Assembly: GCA_015521565.1 (NCBI GenBank)
Contig: WANX01000002.1
Span: forward strand, 7,308 to 71,307
Reading direction: 5' to 3'
DNA: 64,000 nucleotides
From: Candidatus Hydrothermarchaeota archaeon
GTDB taxonomy: Archaea > Hydrothermarchaeota > Hydrothermarchaeia > Hydrothermarchaeales > BMS3B
The notes beneath the pieces are model-generated. The model was not told the DNA's origin, did not search any database, and saw only the letters and a program-made list of their open reading frames with translations. Within the stretch, counting starts at the first letter, position 1. Every line of letters begins with the position of its first letter. Positions 2,220 to 63,324 of this stretch are shown in pieces. Position numbers and translations under genes: made by a program.

Positions 2220-3149
2220 ATGGAGCTTGAAGAACTTCCCGGCGTGGGCATAGCAACCGCCGAGAAGCTGCGTGAGGCGGGATTCAAGACAGTTGAGGCA
2301 ATAGCGGTGGCTCATCCAGCGGAGCTGAAGGAGGCCGCGGGTATAGGCGAGAGCGCAGCCATGAAGATAATAAATGCAGCCCGTGAGTCCCTCCAGATGG
2401 GATTCATGACAGGAGTGGAGGTGCTGGAAAAGCGCAGAACCATGCGCAAGATAACCACTGGAAGCAAGAATCTGGACGACCTCCTTGGCGGTGGTATAGA
2501 GACCCAGGCAATTACCGAATTCTTTGGAGAATTCGGGTCAGGAAAGACCCAGGTGTGCCATCAGCTGGCTGTGAATGTTCAGCTGCCTGAGGACGATGGA
2601 GGGCTCGGAAAAACTGCCTTCTATCTGGACACCGAGAATACCTTCCGTCCGGAGAGGATTATACAGATGGCCGAGGGGATTGGCAGGGAGCCCAGGGAGG
2701 TGCTCGAAAACATCATAGTCGCCAGGGCATACAACAGTGACCACCAGATGCTGCTTATCGAGAAGGCAGAGGATATAATCAGGGAGAAGAATATAGGCCT
2801 TATAGTTGTGGATTCCCTGACCTCCCACTTCAGAAGCGACTATACCGGGAGGGGAATGCTATCCGACAGGCAGCAGAAGCTCAACCGCCACATGCACACA
2901 CTTCAGAAGCTCAGTGATATCTACAATCTGGCTGTGGTGGTTACAAATCAGGTGATGATGCGTCCCGACTTCTTTTTCGGAGACCCCACCGCACCCATAG
3001 GAGGGCATGTGGTGGGACACAGTTCGACCTTCAGGATATACCTGCGCAAGTCGAAGGCTGGCAAGCGGGTGGCGCGACTGATAGACTCTCCCAACCTCCC
3101 TGAGGGGGAGGCCATATTTACAGTAACTGCCGATGGTATAAGGGATTGA
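2220..3149 (+). CDS. radA: DNA repair and recombination protein RadA (Rad51/RecA homolog)
   Basis: N-terminal HhH ([20 protein letters not shown]), Walker A (GEFGSGKTQ) and RecA-fold core ([13 protein letters not shown]). Likely true start is MELEEL at 2220, inside the longer ORF that begins at 2166. Confidence 0.9.
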
Positions 3150-3829
3150 GGATGATAAAGGCAGTGGCCATAGACATAGATGGCACCATCACCGATGAGA
3201 GGAGGAGGCTGAACCTGAAGGCTGTGGCAATCCTGCGCGAGCTTGAGAGGCGCGGTGTTATGGTGGTTCTTGCAACTGGCAACATTCTGTGTGTTGCCGA
3301 ATCTGCTCGCACCTTTATCGGCGTGTCGGGTGGCATAATTGCAGAGAATGGCGGTATCATAAAAGACCCGGAGATGGGGATAGAGCGATACCTGGGGGAC
3401 GTGGTTGAGGTGCGAAGGGCATTTAACCATCTTGCTGCAAGGTACTGTGTAACACCCGTGCCTATGTCGGAGCTCAGAAAGACGGAGGTAGCTGTTCTGC
3501 GGCGGGGTATAACTGCAGGGGAAGTGAGAGATTGCCTCAAGAATTTCAAAGTAGAGGTGGTGGACACAAAGTTTGCAATCCACATAAAATCCCCAGAGGT
3601 CAGCAAGGGCAGAGCGCTGGAGGAGTTGATGGAACTGAAAGGAGTGGATATGCACGAGGTTGCAGCAGTAGGCGACAGCGAAAATGACAGGGATATGCTT
3701 GCAAGGTCAGGGTACGGTATAGCAGTTGGGGATGACTCACTTAAAGATGTTGCAGATATTGTTACCCCTTCCAGGTATGGTGAGGGTGCGGTAGAGGCGC
3801 TGCAGCATCTTCTGGCACGGCTTCGATAA
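3146..3829 (+). CDS. HAD-superfamily hydrolase, archaeal phosphoglycolate phosphatase-like
   Basis: Motif I DIDGT ([10 protein letters not shown]) and C-terminal [10 protein letters not shown] motif. About 227 aa, the size of archaeal PGPase. Confidence 0.7.
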
Positions 3830-3896
3830 ATTTTTAAATGATAAATTATTAAGAATAGGAAAACGTGTTCAACACGTCCTCTCGGGATGGATCGCA

Positions 3897-4409
3897 ATGG
3901 AAAAGATAGAGCCCAATTACAGGGAGGTAAGCTCTGAGCTGGTGAAGGAGATAAAGCAGGAGCCCGGAGGTGAGTACATATCACGCTGTTACCAGTGCGG
4001 CACCTGTGCAGCCACCTGTGTGGTAAACCCCTTTAAAAACGACTTCAACCCCCGGAGAATAATCCGAATGGCTGTGCTGGGTGTGGAGAATGTGCTGGAG
4101 AGCATTGAACCCTGGTACTGTGCTGTTTGCTACCTCTGCACTGAACGATGCCCCAGAGATGTAAAGCCGGCTGCTGTACTCATGGCAATAAAGAATGTTG
4201 CAGCAAAGCACGGGAAAGTTCCAGCTGCCTTCAGGACGATAAATGAAAACATCGCCAGAATTGGCCGTCTTTTTGAGATAGATGACTTTACAAACTTTAT
4301 GCGGGAGGACATGGGACTTCCCCCAATAGAACCCCTTGAGGAGGAAGAGATAAGCAGACTCATCGCCGGAACAAGATTTGAAAAGCTCATGAAAGGTGAG
4401 GAGAGCTGA
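3897..4409 (+). CDS. hdrC: Heterodisulfide reductase subunit C-like (two 4Fe-4S ferredoxin motifs)
   Basis: CxxCxxCxxxCP motifs (CYQCGTCAATC and CAVCYLCTERCP). Located immediately upstream of hdrB. Confidence 0.75.
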   Translation: MEKIEPNYREVSSELVKEIKQEPGGEYISRCYQCGTCAATCVVNPFKNDFNPRRIIRMAVLGVENVLESIEPWYCAVCYLCTERCPRDVKPAAVLMAIKNVAAKHGKVPAAFRTINENIARIGRLFEIDDFTNFMREDMGLPPIEPLEEEEISRLIAGTRFEKLMKGEES

Positions 4410-4411
4410 AA

Positions 4412-5263
4412 ATGGGCGACGATTATCTCTACTTTCCGGGTTGTAACATACCCTACAGGGAGAACCAGTATGAACTTTCCGCCAGGGCAGTTGCCGAAAA
4501 GCTGGGCATAAAACTTCATGACAGACCTTTCAACTGCTGCGGGCTGAACACTGAGCCAGTAGATGAGTACGCCGCCCTGCTGTTCTCGGCCCGCAACATA
4601 GCGATAGCAGAAGAGGAGGGCATGAACCTGGTGGCCCTGTGCAATGGCTGCTACAAGACCCTCAGGGTGGCAAACAGAAAGCTGCACATGGATGAGAGAC
4701 TGCGCGCAAAAGTGAACGAGGGTCTGAGCAGAATAGGCAGAGAGGTAAAGGGTACGATTGAGGTTTACCACATGCTTGAGCTCATTTCTGACAGGATAAC
4801 AAAAGAGCACATGGTAAAAAAGGTCCAGGCCCGTATAGCGCCCTTCACCGGTTGCCATGCTGTACGTCCAAGCGAATATGTTGACTTCGGAGCTGCTGAG
4901 CGGCTGATGAAGATGATAAAGCTTGCAGGAGGCCGGGTGGTGAGGTACAGGGACATGGACAAGTGCTGCGGTGCTCCTCTTCTCGCACTGAGTGAGGAGA
5001 TGGGAATAAGTCTTGCGCGGCAGAGGATGCTGAGTATGAAGGAGCGGAAGGCCGAGCTTGCGGTCACCATGTGCCCCTTCTGTCAGGTCTCCCTGGACGG
5101 ACTGCAGGTGAAGGCCGAGCAGGAGTTCAAAGAAAGCTACGATATCCCCAGCCTCTATATTACCCAGCTTCTGGGACTTGCTATGGGTATAAAGCCTGAG
5201 AAGCTTGGAATAAACGAAAACAAGAAGGACCCCAGCGGAGTGCTCGCCCGGGTGCTCGTGTAG
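4412..5263 (+). CDS. hdrB: Heterodisulfide reductase subunit B-like (CCG-domain protein)
   Basis: Two Cys-rich CCG domains (FPGCNIP...NCCG...; FTGCHAV...KCCGAP...CPFC). Tightly linked to hdrC with a 2-bp gap. Confidence 0.8.
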   Translation: MGDDYLYFPGCNIPYRENQYELSARAVAEKLGIKLHDRPFNCCGLNTEPVDEYAALLFSARNIAIAEEEGMNLVALCNGCYKTLRVANRKLHMDERLRAKVNEGLSRIGREVKGTIEVYHMLELISDRITKEHMVKKVQARIAPFTGCHAVRPSEYVDFGAAERLMKMIKLAGGRVVRYRDMDKCCGAPLLALSEEMGISLARQRMLSMKERKAELAVTMCPFCQVSLDGLQVKAEQEFKESYDIPSLYITQLLGLAMGIKPEKLGINENKKDPSGVLARVLV

Positions 5264-5394
5264 AACCGCATGTCAGAACCCCTGTGCATGCAGAAAGCTG
5301 CCGGGTTCCATCGATAACTATAAAAGATGAGAGGGAACTAATAAGATATTATTGCTGTAAGCATCAAACCGGGGGTCGGGAAATTCCTGGAAGA

Positions 5395-6030
5395 GTGCTG
5401 ATAGTAGATGACGAGAAGGAAATTCAGAACATCCTGTGCAAGTTGCTAACAAAAGAAGGATACGAAGTGGATGTGGCAACTCTTCCGGAAGAGGCGCTGA
5501 GGAAGGTGGAAGAGGAGAACTACGATGTTGTGCTCCTTGACCTGATGCTCCCGGGGATAAAGGGTACGGACATCATACAGGAAATTCGGCGTTTCCGTCC
5601 AAACTGTGCGGTTATTATCATGACAGCCTTCGGTACGATTCCGAGCAGTGTGGAGGCCATGCGCAAGGGAGCCTTCGACTACATAGAAAAACCATTCAAG
5701 AAGGGTGAAATTCAGTATGCGGTAAAGAATGCGATGGAGCACAAGCGGCTTAGGAAAAAGTTTGGAAAGCGGGCCAACGAAATCCTCAAATCGGTATCAA
5801 ATCCCATCCGGAGGGATATTCTTGAGATACTTTTTGAAAAGGATGCCATGAAGCTGATGGAAATCGTCAAGTCGCTGGGGGTAAAGGACCACACGAAGGT
5901 GAGCTTTCACCTGAGGCGGCTCAAGGAGCATGAGCTTGTGGAGCAGAACGGAAAGAGATGGTACAGGATAACCCCCAAGGGTGTCAAGGTCCTCGAGGCG
6001 ATCTGGAACCTTGAGCAGGAATTCCTGTAG
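5395..6030 (+). CDS. Response regulator with CheY-like receiver domain and C-terminal ArsR-like winged helix
   Basis: Receiver motifs VLIVDDE, LLDLMLPG and the conserved Lys in EKPF. The C-terminus (PIRRDILEIL...SFHLRRLKEHELV) is a wHTH. The start is uncertain: a GTG at 5395 or the upstream ATG at 5284. Confidence 0.7.
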   Translation: MLIVDDEKEIQNILCKLLTKEGYEVDVATLPEEALRKVEEENYDVVLLDLMLPGIKGTDIIQEIRRFRPNCAVIIMTAFGTIPSSVEAMRKGAFDYIEKPFKKGEIQYAVKNAMEHKRLRKKFGKRANEILKSVSNPIRRDILEILFEKDAMKLMEIVKSLGVKDHTKVSFHLRRLKEHELVEQNGKRWYRITPKGVKVLEAIWNLEQEFL

Positions 6031-7403: not shown

Positions 7404-8258
7404 CTACAGCTCCTTCAGCACCCTGTAGACTACTGAGAAGTCAAGAGCATCCAGATTCTTAGGAAAAGTCAGGGCAAAGAGCTCCTTTGCAGTACTCCCC
7501 ATGAACAGCGGCCTTTTCAGGACCCTTGCCAGGTCCTGCAGATAGTGGAGGTCTTTGTAGATAAGTGCAGAGGAAAAATGTGTGGAGAAGTCTTCATTCT
7601 GCAGCTTCTCTCTTTTGGCGTTAAGGACCATTGAGTTGCCTGCACCGGAGGCGAGAATCTCCAGCACCTTCTCCCTGCTCAGCCCGGCGCACTCCCCCAG
7701 CACCACCGCCTCTGCAATGGCTGCCATAAAGGAGCCCAGAACCAGATTGTTTATCAGCTTCATCCTGGTGGCGAGGGTTGGCCTGCCCAGATAGAAGATA
7801 TGCTCTCCTATTTTATCAATATAGGGCAGCGCCATCTCATATGCCTGCCTGTCGCCACTCACAAGCACTGTTAGCCTGCCCCGGGATGCGGGCACAACGC
7901 TTCCGAGCACCGGAGCCTCAAGGTAGTGGGCTCCCTTCTCTCTGAACATACGGTGGAAGTCTGCCACCGCCTCAAAGTGGTTGGTTGTGGTGTCGATTAT
8001 AACCTTTCCTTCACACTCTCCGGAGAGGAGCCCGTCCCTGCCAGTAGCTACAGACCTGACAGCATTGCTGTCAAAGAGGCACAAGAAGACAAAGTCCACC
8101 TCAGATAAGAGCGAGGCCGGGCTGTCCGCCACCTCAACTCCAAGCTCTTCCGCCTTCTCTCTGGTCCTGTTCCATACCACAAGCTCCACGTCCTGAGAAA
8201 TTAAGCGCTTTGCCATCGCCCTGCCAAGGTTGCCCAGACCTATAAACCCTGCCTTCAT
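7404..8258 (-). CDS. NAD(P)-dependent oxidoreductase, 3-hydroxyisobutyrate/6-phosphogluconate dehydrogenase family
   Basis: N-terminal Rossmann motif GFIGLGNLG and the family's C-terminal helical domain. The start is set at MKAGFIG. Confidence 0.75.
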   Translation of the reverse strand: MKAGFIGLGNLGRAMAKRLISQDVELVVWNRTREKAEELGVEVADSPASLLSEVDFVFLCLFDSNAVRSVATGRDGLLSGECEGKVIIDTTTNHFEAVADFHRMFREKGAHYLEAPVLGSVVPASRGRLTVLVSGDRQAYEMALPYIDKIGEHIFYLGRPTLATRMKLINNLVLGSFMAAIAEAVVLGECAGLSREKVLEILASGAGNSMVLNAKREKLQNEDFSTHFSSALIYKDLHYLQDLARVLKRPLFMGSTAKELFALTFPKNLDALDFSVVYRVLKEL

Positions 8259-8346
8259 GTCTATGCCTCCCGTGTAATATATTCTATGCAATTAATAAAT
8301 AACCTCCTGGCATGGTGGCGCAGGCCGGACTGCAGGGAACCTGTCC

Positions 8347-8356
8347 AAATAACATT
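8347..8356. repeat. Left copy of a 10-bp perfect direct repeat (aaataacatt) flanking the AT-rich island
   Basis: An identical decamer recurs at 10445-10454. The two copies bracket the low-GC two-gene insertion. Confidence 0.5.
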
Positions 8357-8502
8357 TTCTCACATCAAGTGGCTGTGATATAGCCTGAAAGTATAGGCGA
8401 AGAAGCTGTTTTGTTTAAGAACCGCTTCCTACCAGAGCTTTTCGTTTTCCTTTTCAGGCTCTTTCTGAAGTTGATGTTAAAGTTATTCAGAGCAATACAG
8501 AA

Positions 8503-8513
8503 GGTTTAAATAA
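8503..8513 (+). promoter_or_regulatory. TATA-box-like element (gtttaaataa) about 30 bp upstream of the ATPase start codon
   Basis: Archaeal promoter geometry (TATA at about -27/-30) relative to the ATG at 8538. Confidence 0.4.
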
Positions 8514-8537
8514 CAATGCTTTAGAAATAAGATTTTG

Positions 8538-9932
8538 ATGATAAGAGCTGACCTTAAGAAAGTTGTTATCAAGAACTTCAAAAGTCTTCACGACTGCGAA
8601 ATCGATATTAGAAAGCTAAATGTGGTAGTCGGTGCAAACGCATCCGGAAAATCAAATTTAGTGGAAGTATTTAAACTCTTGAAAAAAATCTATGCCGAAA
8701 AGGAAATTAATCCATTTTTTGAATGGTGGGGATACAATAACGTCGTATGGCAAAGAAAAGAAGAACTGCCCATAACAATCGGACTACTTTTTGAAATAGA
8801 AGGATATGAGGTTTATTTTGAAACTACATTTACCGGTATTGGAGGAAAATTTCAAATTTTGAGAGAACTCCTAGATATTAAAGGTTATCTGAAAATATTA
8901 AAAGAAGGTGAATGGTTAACAGTCAAGCATAATCCTGATTTTATAGAAGATATCATCAAAAATTTAAAGAGATATAAAGCAGATTATGGTCTAAAGACAA
9001 AATTAAGAAAGAGAAAAATAAAATTAATGGAAGAAAGAAAGATAAAGGTAGATTTTGATATAAAACTTTTAGACATACTCAGATTACCGATTTGGGTGGG
9101 CGTTGGATATAACCTTATTGATAGGGAGACTAATAAAAAGTTTATATTCTCGTATATTTTTATCCCCACTACTACATCGATTAATTATAAAAAATTTAAA
9201 GAAGAATTTGAAAGAGTTGCAATATTATGTCCACGAATAACCATAAAAAAGCCACGTTTCCGACCAGAAAGTTCACTTTATAGAATTGCTTCGAATAAAA
9301 TATTTTCTATTTTAACAGGAATGTCAATTTTACTGCCGCTTAATGTTCGCTTAATGAAAGACCCTCAAACTCTTAGAAAAGAGGAAACACTTAAAGAAGA
9401 TGGGAGTAATATTGCCAGCGTATTCCACAGTATTTATATCAATAAAGGAAAGATTCCTGAAGAGATCTACCATCCTCTATCAATGCTCTTCCCTGATATA
9501 GAAGTACGTCCACATATCACGGACGATGGAAGAGTCATGATTAAAATATGGGAAAAAGGTTTAGAGCTTCTACCTCCAAATATTTCTGATGGATTCTATA
9601 AAGTTTTGACGATTCTTACTGCCATCTACCTTAAACCGTCTTTATTAATAATAGATGAGATAGAAAATTCTCTACATCCAGAAACATTAGAACTTATTTT
9701 AGACACTATAAGGAAAAGCGATGTCAATGCAATAATAACAACTCATTCTCCTGTTGTTGTTGATATGGTCGATCTTAGCGAGTTAATTCTTATAGAAAAA
9801 GATTCAGAAGGGTCTAAATTCAGACGTATAAAAGACCCTGATAAAATAAAGGAGTTTTTAAGAGAAAAAGGCATAACGTTTAGTGAAGGATGGTTATATG
9901 GGGATCTATTTGGGACTGAGGAAAAAGTATGA
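8538..9932 (+). CDS. AAA_21/OLD-family ABC-type ATPase, the ATPase component of a predicted defence module
   Basis: N-terminal Walker A (VVGANASGKSN) in a NFKSL...I.I..LNVVVG context typical of SMC/RecF-like ABC ATPases. C-terminal Walker B plus D-loop (LLIIDEIENSLHP) and the AAA_21 hallmark H-loop (IITTHSP). About 30% GC against ~60% in the flanks. The real ATG is at 8538; the ORF caller used the TTG at 8535. Confidence 0.8.
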   Translation: MIRADLKKVVIKNFKSLHDCEIDIRKLNVVVGANASGKSNLVEVFKLLKKIYAEKEINPFFEWWGYNNVVWQRKEELPITIGLLFEIEGYEVYFETTFTGIGGKFQILRELLDIKGYLKILKEGEWLTVKHNPDFIEDIIKNLKRYKADYGLKTKLRKRKIKLMEERKIKVDFDIKLLDILRLPIWVGVGYNLIDRETNKKFIFSYIFIPTTTSINYKKFKEEFERVAILCPRITIKKPRFRPESSLYRIASNKIFSILTGMSILLPLNVRLMKDPQTLRKEETLKEDGSNIASVFHSIYINKGKIPEEIYHPLSMLFPDIEVRPHITDDGRVMIKIWEKGLELLPPNISDGFYKVLTILTAIYLKPSLLIIDEIENSLHPETLELILDTIRKSDVNAIITTHSPVVVDMVDLSELILIEKDSEGSKFRRIKDPDKIKEFLREKGITFSEGWLYGDLFGTEEKV

Positions 9933-10417
9933 AGATAAAAATGATTGTAGAAGATCACTATGGTGGAGAATTTTTAAAGAGGGTAATTAATAGACTTAAA
10001 ATAGATGGAATGGTATCCAGAAATCTTAGTGTTCCAAAACCAAAACATTTACCTGCTTTATGTAATTCAAAACTCACCAGAATTTTGAAAAAATTTGATA
10101 ATACTTGTGATAAAATTTTAGTTTTCTTAGACTCTGATGGCCCACAAAATCTTAATGATAGATACGCAAAAACAGAATGTCATATCCCAAATAATATGTC
10201 AACTCCAGTAGAGATAGTTCTGACAGATTATGAAATTGAAGAGTGGATATGTATCAGTTTAGATTTAAGGTGGTATTTAAAACCTTCAGAAGAACTTAAA
10301 AAGAAATTTGGATATGAAAAAAGCCATCTAATTTCATATAGTGATAAATTAGACTTTGACAGGTTGCTAAAAGACTGTCGCTCCTTCAAGTCTTTCCTTT
10401 CCGCTTTAAAAACATAA
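9929..10417 (+). CDS. Small Toprim-like (DUF4276-like) protein, the predicted nuclease partner of the ATPase
   Basis: Overlaps the ATPase stop (ATGA). Has a conserved acidic strand (KMIVEDHYGGE) and a DxD motif after a hydrophobic strand (ILVFLDSDGP), the minimal Toprim signature found in OLD, GajA and AriB nucleases. Confidence 0.55.
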   Translation: MKIKMIVEDHYGGEFLKRVINRLKIDGMVSRNLSVPKPKHLPALCNSKLTRILKKFDNTCDKILVFLDSDGPQNLNDRYAKTECHIPNNMSTPVEIVLTDYEIEEWICISLDLRWYLKPSEELKKKFGYEKSHLISYSDKLDFDRLLKDCRSFKSFLSALKT

Positions 10418-10444
10418 ATGTACTGTAAATAAGTGGTTGTCGAA

Positions 10445-10454
10445 AAATAACATT
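10445..10454. repeat. Right copy of the 10-bp direct repeat (aaataacatt) flanking the AT-rich island
   Basis: Identical to 8347-8356. Confidence 0.5.
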
Positions 10455-10779
10455 CCGGCTCTAAGCTCTATTCTCAGCCTCACCTGGAAGTTACATTGAG
10501 TGACAACTCCGCATTATGCTTCATGGCAAGCAACAATCGAAGCAACAGGCGTACAAGACCACTTTATTACTGGCAGAGCTACCACTCGAACATCTCTTCC
10601 TTCTCGTGCAAAAGAAGCAGCGGTAAATATATATGAAAGCAGAGATAAGCTTAGACTGCCGACAGAGGCTGAAAAGCGGATTGTGCCTGCACCCGGCGGC
10701 ACTGCTGTTGTGGTCAGACCTGAAGCTCTGGTCAGAGGCTGGCATACGGCAGCAAATACAATTTAGAGGTGAACTTATC

Positions 10780-11487
10780 ATGGAAGCGGTGAGAACGGGC
10801 ATTCCGGGTATGGACAATCTGTTTTCAGCCGGAGGCTTTCCCAGAGGCAACAGCATCCTGCTCATAGGCGGTCCTGGAAGTGGAAAGTCCATCTTCGGTA
10901 TGCAGTACCTATACTCCGGTGCAAGGGAGTATGAAGAGCCGGGGATATACATAACCTTCGAGGAAACCCCCGAGAAGATAAAGAGGAACATGCTCGCCTT
11001 TGGCTGGGACCTGGATGAGCTTGAGAAAGAAGAAAAGCTCATAATAATGGACGCTGTGACCTACCGCATCTCCGGCGATGTGGATGAGGAAACGCTGCGC
11101 TCTGGTCTGGATGTGGACAACCTTATCGCAAATCTTGATGATGCCATCTCTGCAACAGGTGCAGAGCGCGTCGTGATAGACTCCCTCTCGGTAATGGGGC
11201 TCTATGCCCACGATGAGTTTGAGAAGCGCACAAAGCTGCTACGTCTTTCGAATCTGCTGAGCATGCGCAGAGTAACCAGCCTGGTGATAACCGAAGCAAG
11301 GAGTGCTGATATAGGGATAAAGGAGTTTCCCATCGAAACGTTCATGTTTGATGGCGTTATAACCCTTCGCCTGGATACTGAAACGCAGGAAAGGAGGATA
11401 TCAATACGCAAGATGCGTGGCACAAAACATGTCATAGGCTCCTTCAAGTTTGCAATAACCGACCGCGGAATAGAGCTTTCACCGTAG
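10780..11487 (+). CDS. KaiC/RadA-like RecA-superfamily ATPase
   Basis: Walker A LLIGGPGSGKS. Single KaiC-like domain architecture (GIPGMDNLF...YITFEE...). The start is set at MEAVRTG. Confidence 0.75.
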   Translation: MEAVRTGIPGMDNLFSAGGFPRGNSILLIGGPGSGKSIFGMQYLYSGAREYEEPGIYITFEETPEKIKRNMLAFGWDLDELEKEEKLIIMDAVTYRISGDVDEETLRSGLDVDNLIANLDDAISATGAERVVIDSLSVMGLYAHDEFEKRTKLLRLSNLLSMRRVTSLVITEARSADIGIKEFPIETFMFDGVITLRLDTETQERRISIRKMRGTKHVIGSFKFAITDRGIELSP

Positions 11488-63226: not shown

Positions 63227-63249
63227 GGCTATCTTTAAGGAGGGAAGAG

Positions 63250-63324
63250 GGCCACGGCCGAGATTTGAACTCGGGCTAAGGGATCCACAGTCCCTTGTGC
63301 TGACCAGGCTACACTACCGTGGCC
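63250..63324 (-). tRNA. tRNA-His (anticodon GUG) with genomically encoded G-1; no encoded CCA
   Basis: Hand-folded cloverleaf. An 8-bp acceptor stem (GGCCACGG/CCGTGGCC) that includes the G-1:C73 pair. D-stem GTGT/GCAC. Anticodon stem AGGGA/TCCCT with loop CTGTGGA. T-arm CCGAG-TTCAAAT-CTCGG. Confidence 0.8.

Follow-up and report, generated by a model that had tools for sequence, protein, structure and literature searches.

What is encoded by a small open reading frame (ORF) that lies directly behind an ATPase gene in a genome of Candidatus Hydrothermarchaeota archaeon? The ORF of 162 codons is located in a stretch of 64,000 nucleotides (nt; assembly GCA_015521565.1, contig WANX01000002.1, positions 7,308 to 71,307 of the forward strand), which is called the window here and to which all coordinates refer unless another locus is named. 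A first-pass annotation, made from the sequence alone, had proposed a Toprim-type catalytic domain with an adjacent ATPase. A profile link to DUF4276 and a predicted fold compatible with Toprim agree with this proposal. The small gene turned out to be genuine and under constraint. It shows strict linkage to, and co-inheritance with, the ATPase gene, and the resulting two-gene cassette was recently inserted in this genome.

A constrained gene that is inherited together with an ATPase gene

The ORF (9929-10417, + strand) has an ATG start codon and 162 codons, followed by a TAA stop codon at 10415-10417, and the opposite strand of the same region is rich in stop codons. A copy of the cassette with 83 % identity is present in another Pyrohabitans genome (L008). 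In comparison with this copy, the ratio of nonsynonymous to synonymous substitution rates (dN/dS) was 0.118 for the small gene, which indicates purifying selection, and 0.116 for the ATPase gene. Both genes are functional coding sequences, and the proposed ORF was confirmed.

The Toprim proposal had been based on a hydrophobic first strand that ends in acidic residues (KIKMIVEDHYGGE, residues 2-14 of the 162-amino-acid (aa) protein) and a second strand with the sequence KILVFLDSDGP (residues 62-72). Both motifs are present and conserved across the family. Their layout was as described, but the distance was not; E8 and D68 are 60 residues apart instead of about 55. A regular expression for this layout (hydrophobic strand with E, 45-70 aa, hydrophobic strand with DxD) was tried on the 224 open stretches that the window contains with a length of 100 aa or more; it matched the 162-aa ORF alone, and 19 of 20,000 shuffled versions of the protein. 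Because the pattern was written post hoc, these counts are indicative only, and the conservation of the residues is the stronger argument for the motifs.

The upstream gene encodes an ABC-type ATPase. The Pfam models AAA_21 (1e-24) and AAA_15 (4.5e-16) matched, as did SMC_N and AAA_23. Among the PADLOC models, HEC-01A was best (PDLC04178, 4.1e-36), several further HEC-01A models matched too, and PDC-M07A, AbiLi, AriA, mad3, NsnB, Old and GajA followed, with values of 9e-26 for AbiLi models and of 1e-25 and 3e-17 for AriA models. The N-terminus matched RecF, SMC and Rad50 weakly (NCBIfam recF 7e-9). The nucleotide-binding motifs are listed in Table 1 together with the other features of the cassette. 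The central third of the protein contains many Lys residues (for example KTKLRKRKIKLMEERKIK) and shows practically no conservation across the 48 homologues; by analogy with the ATPases of HEC and PARIS systems, it is a candidate region for trigger sensing or oligomerisation.

When one genome per species was scanned with a sequence pattern, 48 loci were recovered, all of them archaeal, with hosts from Methanoperedens, Thermococcus, Nitrosopumilus, Bathyarchaeota, Thermoplasmata, Asgard relatives, Desulfurococcales and Pyrohabitans. A homologous ATPase gene was found directly upstream, on the same strand and abutting or overlapping the small gene, in 45 of the 45 loci with upstream DNA. The other three comprise two loci at or near a contig end and one 61-aa fragment. 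The pairwise identities of the two proteins were strongly correlated (r = 0.90, a value reached in 0 of 2000 permutations), which shows that both genes are passed on, and diverge, together. From this strict linkage it appears plausible that the small protein depends on the ATPase for DNA recognition. In the window, the stop codon of the ATPase gene and the start codon of the downstream gene form an ATGA overlap, which suggests translational coupling. The putative promoter is TTTAAATAACA, which would yield a leaderless mRNA; the similarity between the L008 cassette and the window begins at 8498 and takes in this box.

Table 1. Features of the two-gene cassette and of the insertion that carries it (coordinates of the window)
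Feature	Position	Strand	Basis
AT-rich insertion bearing the whole two-gene cassette, 2,282 base pairs (bp), GC content 0.33 (flanks about 0.55)	8335..10616		Empty site in L069/L070
Candidate archaeal TATA box, TTTAAATAACA, about 25 nt upstream of ATG 8538	8505..8515	+	Same 11-mer at the equivalent place in the L008 cassette
Gene of the ABC-type (OLD/AbiL/HEC-01A-like) ATPase, 465 aa from TTG 8535 or 464 aa from ATG 8538	8535..9932	+	Pfam, PADLOC, dN/dS
Walker A, GANASGKS (residues 33-40)	8631..8654	+	Kept among 48 homologues
Lys-rich, poorly conserved central insert (about residues 105-270)	8850..9347	+	Conservation profile, 48 homologues
ABC signature-like motif, ISDGF	9582..9596	+	Conserved, 48 homologues
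Walker B and D-loop, LLIIDEIENSLHP	9642..9680	+	Conserved, 48 homologues
H-loop, TTHSP	9738..9752	+	Conserved, 48 homologues
ATGA overlap (4 nt), stop of the ATPase gene and start of the Toprim gene	9929..9932	+	Sequence
Short-form DUF4276-type Toprim gene (the gene under study)	9929..10417	+	ORF, homology, model, hhalign
E8-D9 just after strand beta1, proposed Toprim Glu (metal A) and adjoining acid	9950..9955	+	Conservation; aligns with the invariant Glu of DUF4276
D68-S-D70, DxD motif at the end of beta3	10130..10138	+	D68 in 163/163; position 70 D/E/H
E102-I-E104-E105, third acidic motif just past beta4, proposed metal-B site	10232..10243	+	Conservation; aligns with the invariant E.E of DUF4276
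C-terminal helical part	10238..10414	+	Model helices 104-110, 119-127, 131-140, 143-149, 151-161; counterpart of the DUF4276 C-terminal region in the alignments
K118 of the conserved KPS motif	10280..10282	+	133/163; paired with APSKR of canonical DUF4276
Y129-E-K131, K131 as candidate catalytic lysine	10313..10321	+	Conservation; proposed analogy to K562 of BpOLD

The archaeal proteins are a short branch of DUF4276

The Pfam model DUF4276 (PF14103) matched the 162-aa protein with an E-value of 0.004 and 17.8 bits versus a cut-off of 30.2 bits, and the match covered only the C-terminal 42 aa. Weak matches to the same model were obtained for 20 of 23 family members, while RloB matched five of the 23 (best 0.0014) and DUF3226 two. 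The PADLOC model HEC-01B (PDLC04196) gave a weak match to residues 1-108 (3.3e-5, 22 bits). Across the family, the PADLOC models mad4 and HEC-01B each matched 14 of 27 members (best 2.3e-7 and 5.3e-7, respectively), and ATPase-Toprim_I-B matched five. An NCBIfam scan of the 162-aa protein and a tblastn search with it against plasmids gave no match.

With the ATPase as query, distant relatives were found on bacterial plasmids, and the next gene downstream was annotated as DUF4276 or scored as such. Six plasmid proteins encoded directly downstream of such ATPase relatives, with 31-210 bits on PF14103, were used as a set of genuine DUF4276 proteins (A3). An hhalign comparison of the archaeal family profile (A2) with this set yielded a full-length match (95.7 %, E-value 1.1e-8, columns 3-166 versus 2-214). 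In the joint alignment, E8 is in register with the invariant Glu of DUF4276 and D68 with its invariant Asp. Furthermore, YEIEEW pairs with HEFEAL, KPS with APSKR and YxK with YKK, and a C-terminal SF..FL is shared. Compared with the six plasmid proteins (198-228 aa), the archaeal ones lack 36-66 aa, owing to loop deletions around beta2 and after beta4. The full-length profile match, the common register and the loop deletions therefore define the archaeal proteins as a short-form branch of DUF4276 that stays below the Pfam threshold, and this is also why its members are labelled 'hypothetical'. These sequence comparisons show that the archaeal family is homologous to DUF4276.

Published work has placed DUF4276 and RloB in the Toprim superfamily, with Glu and DxD conserved, and has described HEC-01B as Toprim-like with the metal site of BpOLD. 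Searches beyond DUF4276 were less productive. Sequence and profile searches of the PDB (with the single protein, A2 and the profile A4) gave no meaningful match, PH0156 included, and a second homology search with A2 added almost nothing new and did not reach canonical DUF4276. The Toprim region of P2 Old retrieved only fragments as a search query and nothing in tblastn against plasmids. The hhalign comparisons of A4, A2 and A3 with a two-sequence P2 Old profile were not significant (probability below 1 %); in the non-significant alignment of A4, the E and DxD registers were as expected.

Predicted fold and conserved residues

An AlphaFold2 model based on the family alignment reached a pLDDT of 92.1 and a pTM of 0.87. 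It contains beta1 (residues 2-7), alpha1 (10-25), short bridges (34 and 39-40), alpha2 (46-55), beta3 (62-68), alpha3 (72-83), beta4 (94-99) and alpha4 (104-110), followed by four helices up to residue 161. The beta-alpha elements follow the Toprim order. The predicted core is a three-layer alpha/beta arrangement with four beta-alpha units and resembles solved Toprim domains; E8 lies directly past beta1, where Toprim domains have their Glu at the end of beta1 or the start of alpha1, and D68-S-D70 provides the DxD at the end of beta3. The closest structural matches of the predicted fold were PH0156 and the Toprim plus helical regions of OLD nucleases and of GajA. As far as a model can tell, the fold is compatible with Toprim. 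A non-Toprim fold or missing profile matches to DUF4276 or Toprim_OLD had been named in the first-pass annotation as outcomes that would speak against it, and neither was observed. The Toprim assignment, based on DUF4276 homology and fold compatibility, is well supported.

A first homology search with the 162-aa protein returned 44 proteins, and an exhaustive search of 1.84 billion representatives with a hidden Markov model returned 238 at an E-value of at most 1e-3, nearly all of them 155-180 aa long. The family thus comprises about 240 cluster representatives at 50 % identity. Its median length is 164 aa, so that 162 aa is the family norm and the protein does not stand out as one of the smallest Toprims known, as had been assumed. 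Smaller stand-alone Toprim proteins have already been solved, for example PDB 2FCJ, which is named in the OLD literature. One family member of 236 aa (P0183) combines an N-terminal piece of D-aminoacyl-tRNA deacylase (PF04414, 1e-14, model positions 4-62 of 205) with the C-terminal half of the family Toprim; the chimera may be genuine, through fusion or through truncation where an insertion occurred, or it may stem from faulty gene calling. As for the size of 2FCJ, we take it to be about 120 aa, i.e. smaller than 162 aa.

Residue frequencies were determined for 163 aligned family members (for E8 and D9, for the 157 ungapped sequences). D68 and E104 are invariant (163/163 each). Of the 157 sequences, 146 have E8 and 154 have D9, and E102 occurs in 138 of 163 members. 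Position 70 is occupied by D in 132, by E in 21 and by H in 10 members. Y129 (160/163), K131 (159/163) and K118 (133/163) are also conserved. The third acidic motif, Y-E102-I-E104-E105-W, is the best conserved motif of the family and had gone unnoticed in the first-pass annotation, as had the C-terminal helical part with the conserved Y129 and K131. Because the ExEE motif (102-105) and a putative reduced helical catalytic appendage have been kept, the protein is not the 'bare' Toprim that it had been taken for.

In the model, the three acidic motifs are located at the C-terminal ends of beta1, beta3 and beta4, which would place them on the same edge of a parallel sheet. The two-metal mechanism of OLD nucleases relies on E, DxD, TxE and a Lys. 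The ligands of metal A in BpOLD are E400, D455 and D457; metal B is bound by E404 and by T506 and E508 just after the last Toprim strand, and K562 from the helical domain completes the active site. Judged by order and spacing, the counterparts would be E8 and D68/D70 for metal A and D9 and E102/E104 for metal B, with E102/E104 corresponding to T506/E508, and K131 (or K118) of the C-terminal helices could take the role of K562.

The cassette is a recent insertion

The GC content drops to 0.27-0.36 over the two genes, compared with 0.50-0.63 in the flanks. In a near-identical relative (L069/L070), the same gene order is found without the cassette, and a single nt replaces window positions 8335-10616. 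The flanks of L069 and L070 are 99.2 % and 98.4 % identical to those of the window, and the ThiC proteins of the window and of this relative belong to the same cluster at 90 % identity or above. At this level, the window ThiC clusters with ThiC of a Candidatus Pyrohabitans sp. of the phylum Hydrothermarchaeota. The filled and empty sites in genomes with 98-99 % identity represent a clean natural example of cassette gain or loss, and they show that the cassette was recently inserted in this genome. In addition, three independent assemblies from NCBI, ENA and Logan (L001-L003) contain the cassette only on short contigs of 2.3-2.5 kb, which are 100 % identical to the window. They correspond to window positions 8210-10746, 8282-10674 and 8307-10649, and end 30-130 bp past the junctions. 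Such ends suggest that the assembly graph broke there because filled and empty sites co-exist in the sampled population.

No target-site duplication and no terminal inverted repeat was found at the ends of the insertion (the best exact inverted repeat had 4 nt), and an origin as a transposon or insertion sequence is therefore not supported. The non-coding ends did not match any of the other loci compared, and short direct and inverted repeats around the cassette were at chance level. A tRNA-targeted integrative element is not supported either, since no tRNA gene lies near the cassette. The sole tRNA gene of the window, tRNA-His (GTG) at 63249-63323 (- strand), is more than 50 kb away and therefore not an integration target. 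An Rfam scan of 8200-10750 at E-values up to 1 gave no match, so that a retron-like or other known non-coding RNA is not supported.

The cassette occupies different positions in different archaea, and it is more AT-rich than its flanks in nearly all loci. In seven Thermococcus genomes, it is found at one position between the genes of peptidyl-tRNA hydrolase (PTH2) and the tRNA pseudouridine synthase TruD (L004, 6308-9768), and the L008 cassette adjoins a class II aminoacyl-tRNA synthetase gene. These tRNA-related neighbours are probably coincidental, although AriB of PARIS cuts tRNA. In Methanoperedens, at least two contexts were observed. The L008 cassette matches window positions 8498-10410 and lies in a different context. 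Its Toprim protein (3031-3519) is 81 % identical to that of the window, whereas those of L056 and L057 (4001-4500) are only 27-30 % identical. These three Pyrohabitans-like loci have both flanking gene sets in common while the alleles of the cassette are very divergent, which looks like allele replacement at a fixed hotspot. Some copies in Methanoperedens and in genomes related to it have decayed: L017 and L043 carry the Toprim gene as two separate ORFs (about 3956-4497), L022 has a split ATPase gene (2608-4001), and a 61-aa fragment is all that is left in L048 (4001-4183).

The neighbouring genes in the window encode a CCG-domain protein, a response regulator, ThiC, an NAD-dependent dehydrogenase, a KaiC-like ATPase, an ACT/DUF5612 protein and UPF0182. 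The response regulator gene (5284-6030), which adjoins the gene of the CCG-domain (HdrD-like) protein, combines a receiver domain with a winged-helix/ArsR-type helix-turn-helix domain (DUF7347) and is unrelated to the cassette. The KaiC-like gene is called with 235 aa in the relative, compared with a maximal ORF of 284 aa in the window. In the GC-rich flanks, long ORFs on the other strand or in other frames are composition artefacts, for example 10521-11042 (- strand) and 10500-10766 (+ strand), the latter of which crosses the insertion junction.

Proposed function and alternative explanations

How might the two proteins work together? By analogy with the ATPase-Toprim pairs of PARIS, OLD/Gabija, AbiL and NetFlax, we consider it probable that the small protein is a compact, metal-dependent nuclease effector with a Toprim fold, that it is controlled by the ATPase, and that the pair constitutes a mobile conflict cassette. 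The Toprim protein would be the effector and the translationally coupled ABC-type ATPase its partner in an antiviral or toxin-antitoxin-like system. An ATPase oligomer would bind the small nuclease and restrain or direct it. An infection signal, read by the variable central insert and the ATP cycle of the ATPase, would release or activate the nuclease, which would then cut nucleic acid at a two-metal site, with metal A held by E8, D68 and D70 and metal B by D9, E102 and E104. The transition state would be stabilised by K131 of the C-terminal helices, perhaps together with K118. The substrate could be DNA, as for OLD and Gabija, or tRNA or another RNA, as for AriB and RNase M5; RNA is an equal candidate because AriB of PARIS cuts tRNA. 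We infer the nuclease activity, the roles of the individual residues, the regulation by the ATPase and the role in defence from the named systems, and on the same grounds the cassette is probably antiviral.

Several observations weigh against this interpretation. All family members score below the gathering threshold of DUF4276 (best 28.5 versus 30.2 bits). That the acidic residues cluster, and that they map onto the metal ligands of OLD, is a deduction from their order, spacing and strand positions. Foldseek, which had been suggested as a check of the predicted structure, gave a divided answer: the best match in the viral model collection BFVD was an RloB-like protein (TMq 0.59), but no match in the PDB was significant, the top ranks were taken by lumazine synthases and similar folds, and a retron Eco2 chain appeared only at rank 34. 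The protein of this retron is reported to have a Toprim effector domain. No copy or relative of the cassette was found when viral contigs were scanned. In the window as well as in L004 (Thermococcus), L006 (Methanoperedens) and L008 (Pyrohabitans), the cassette lies among housekeeping genes and not in a recognisable defence island. The functional evidence comes only from relatives of the archaeal family, and the one tested representative of HEC-01 did not protect E. coli against phages.

This last result, together with the small, self-contained and AT-rich nature of a cassette inserted among housekeeping genes, would also fit a purely selfish toxin-antitoxin pair, in which a Toprim toxin and an ATPase antitoxin persist by post-segregational killing and give no protection against viruses. 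AAA-type ATPases have been validated as neutralisers of separate Toprim_OLD toxins in NetFlax. However, MADS needs relatives of the pair for its defence against phages, bacterial relatives lie inside restriction-modification and BREX loci, and one chromosomal position has been kept in seven Thermococcus genomes. We therefore regard a purely selfish pair as quite unlikely, but selfish and defensive behaviour are not mutually exclusive. The housekeeping neighbours and the weak similarity of the ATPase N-terminus to RecF, SMC and Rad50 could instead point to a repair or recombination module like RecF-RecR or Rad50, in which the Toprim protein would be a non-catalytic DNA-binding protein or clamp loaded by the ABC ATPase. 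RecR is indeed a Toprim protein that partners an ABC-type ATPase. Such a role is very unlikely, because the cassette is present or absent between genomes with 98-99 % identity, its composition deviates from that of the host, and only 48 archaeal loci were recovered by the scan, in varied contexts and with decayed copies among them. Moreover, the best matches of the ATPase are defence ATPases (1e-25 to 4e-36), far ahead of RecF, and the full set of catalytic-type acids and the Lys are conserved. Least probable of all is that the protein is not a Toprim but a generic Rossmann- or flavodoxin-like alpha/beta domain, for example for ligand binding, with a coincidental E and DxD. The PDB ranking given above would agree with such a fold; the full-length DUF4276 match and the invariant D68 are on the other side.

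A bolder version of the nuclease effector interpretation would be a minimal, self-contained immune module that has so far been seen only in Archaea and forms a family of its own, with all of its about 240 representatives unannotated and below the Pfam thresholds. It would be a miniature PARIS in which an ATPase assembly cages a 19-kDa Toprim nuclease and releases it upon recognition of a viral protein, and the nuclease would cut tRNA or another RNA instead of DNA. We think this unlikely in its entirety. If it were true, it would represent an archaeal instance of such a mechanism, in Thermococcus and Hydrothermarchaeota, both of which are thermophiles.

Comparison with known systems

Several known systems were considered as the identity of the cassette and rejected. 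A type I-B retron was excluded by the lack of a reverse transcriptase ORF in the cassette and of an Rfam match in 8200-10750; the retron I-B effector model matched the ATPase only partially (45 bits versus a cut-off of 250). Menshen was rejected on a defining feature. In OLD proteins (P2 Old, Class 1/2) and GajA, ATPase and Toprim are fused in 500-600 aa, whereas the archaeal pair consists of two ORFs in all 45 informative loci. Together with the lack of a UvrD/GajB-like helicase gene, as the insertion holds just two genes, this led to the rejection of OLD and Gabija. OLD nucleases use two-metal catalysis to nick and degrade DNA. No significant sequence-profile link connects the archaeal family with the Toprim of P2 Old.

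PARIS has the same logic, with a separate ABC ATPase (AriA) and a Toprim effector (AriB) in one operon. AriA holds AriB, which cuts tRNA once it has been released. The AriA models fit the ATPase (1e-25), and the top structural match here, PH0156, has also been reported as the solved structure closest to a PARIS AriB. However, AriB is a DUF4435 Toprim of 35 kDa, and the effector of the window is of the DUF4276 type and has about half that size. No DUF4435 or AriB model matched the 162-aa protein at E-values up to 10, nor was one among the families listed for its relatives. An assignment to PARIS was therefore rejected, the AriA models (1e-25 and 3e-17) being also weaker than HEC-01A (4e-36). 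PH0156 of Pyrococcus horikoshii (PDB 2P62) is itself larger (241 aa) and showed no significant sequence match to the archaeal family in the PDB searches, although it is among the closest structural matches of the predicted fold. We assume that 2P62 is the structural representative of Pfam DUF3226.

AbiL (AbiLi ATPase and AbiLii, an RloB-type Toprim) and RloA/RloB have the same two-gene design of an ATPase and a small Toprim protein for abortive infection, and AbiLii has been described as a Toprim effector. The AbiLi models fit the ATPase (9e-26), RloB matched five of the 23 members weakly, and the top BFVD fold is RloB-like. In contrast, the RloB matches are weaker than those to DUF4276, and no AbiLii model was among the PADLOC matches listed. 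NetFlax, in which separate Toprim_OLD toxins are neutralised by AAA-type partners, is a further pair of this kind.

The closest relationships are those to ATPase + DUF4276 modules. In MADS, Mad3 and Mad4 form an ATPase + DUF4276-type pair, and the mad4 model matched 14 of 27 archaeal members. Both mad3 and mad4 are required for defence, and the methyltransferase gene mad5 can be deleted only along with mad2 or mad3. The cassette is not MADS itself, as MAD3 (NCBIfam) scored 96 bits versus a cut-off of 420 and no other mad genes or methyltransferase gene were found in the insertion or its flanks. HEC-01 (PADLOC 'Hma-embedded candidate 01') has the same gene order, with the ABC ATPase HEC-01A followed by the Toprim protein HEC-01B. 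The ATPase of the window fits HEC-01A with 4.1e-36, and the small protein fits HEC-01B only weakly. The archaeal family is shorter and has so far been recovered from Archaea alone, and its cassette stands alone among housekeeping genes and not inside Hma, restriction-modification or BREX loci.

The bacterial plasmid pairs of DUF4276 and AAA_21/AAA_15 have the ATPase gene upstream and overlapping stop and start codons, as in the window, and full-length homology with E, D, ExE, (K)PS, YxK and SF..FL in common. A canonical DUF4276 subgroup with 'DYYG' lacks DxD, whereas the archaeal family retains a clear DxD/E. On the plasmids L058 and L060-L065, the ATPase gene and its small partner, which is DUF4276-type or unannotated, are wedged in other defence loci, for example between the genes of a macro-domain protein and a type I R subunit in Meiothermus, between those of BrxC and PglX in Oceanisphaera, between those of PglX and PglZ in Azotobacter, and beside DNA methyltransferase genes in Anabaena, Aeromonas and Piscinibacter. 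Four of the small plasmid partners (L062, L064, L065 and L066) had no Pfam match.

The design of an ATPase with a Toprim protein and the fold assignment have already been published, and the cassette does not introduce a new principle. The main additions are the definition of the archaeal family, a minimal motif set and the insertion polymorphism. The module is extended into Archaea, i.e. to Hydrothermarchaeota, Methanoperedens, Thermococcus, Nitrosopumilus, Bathyarchaeota and Asgard relatives. The compact sequences mark the most conserved positions of a DUF4276-type Toprim, namely E-D, DxD/E, ExEE and YxK. Thermococcus sp. AM4 and other carriers might allow tests of a module whose bacterial prototype, HEC-01, shows no phenotype so far. 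In summary, the two genes are best filed as the archaeal short-form branch of the known ATPase + DUF4276 module of HEC-01 and Mad3/Mad4, with a logic like that of PARIS.

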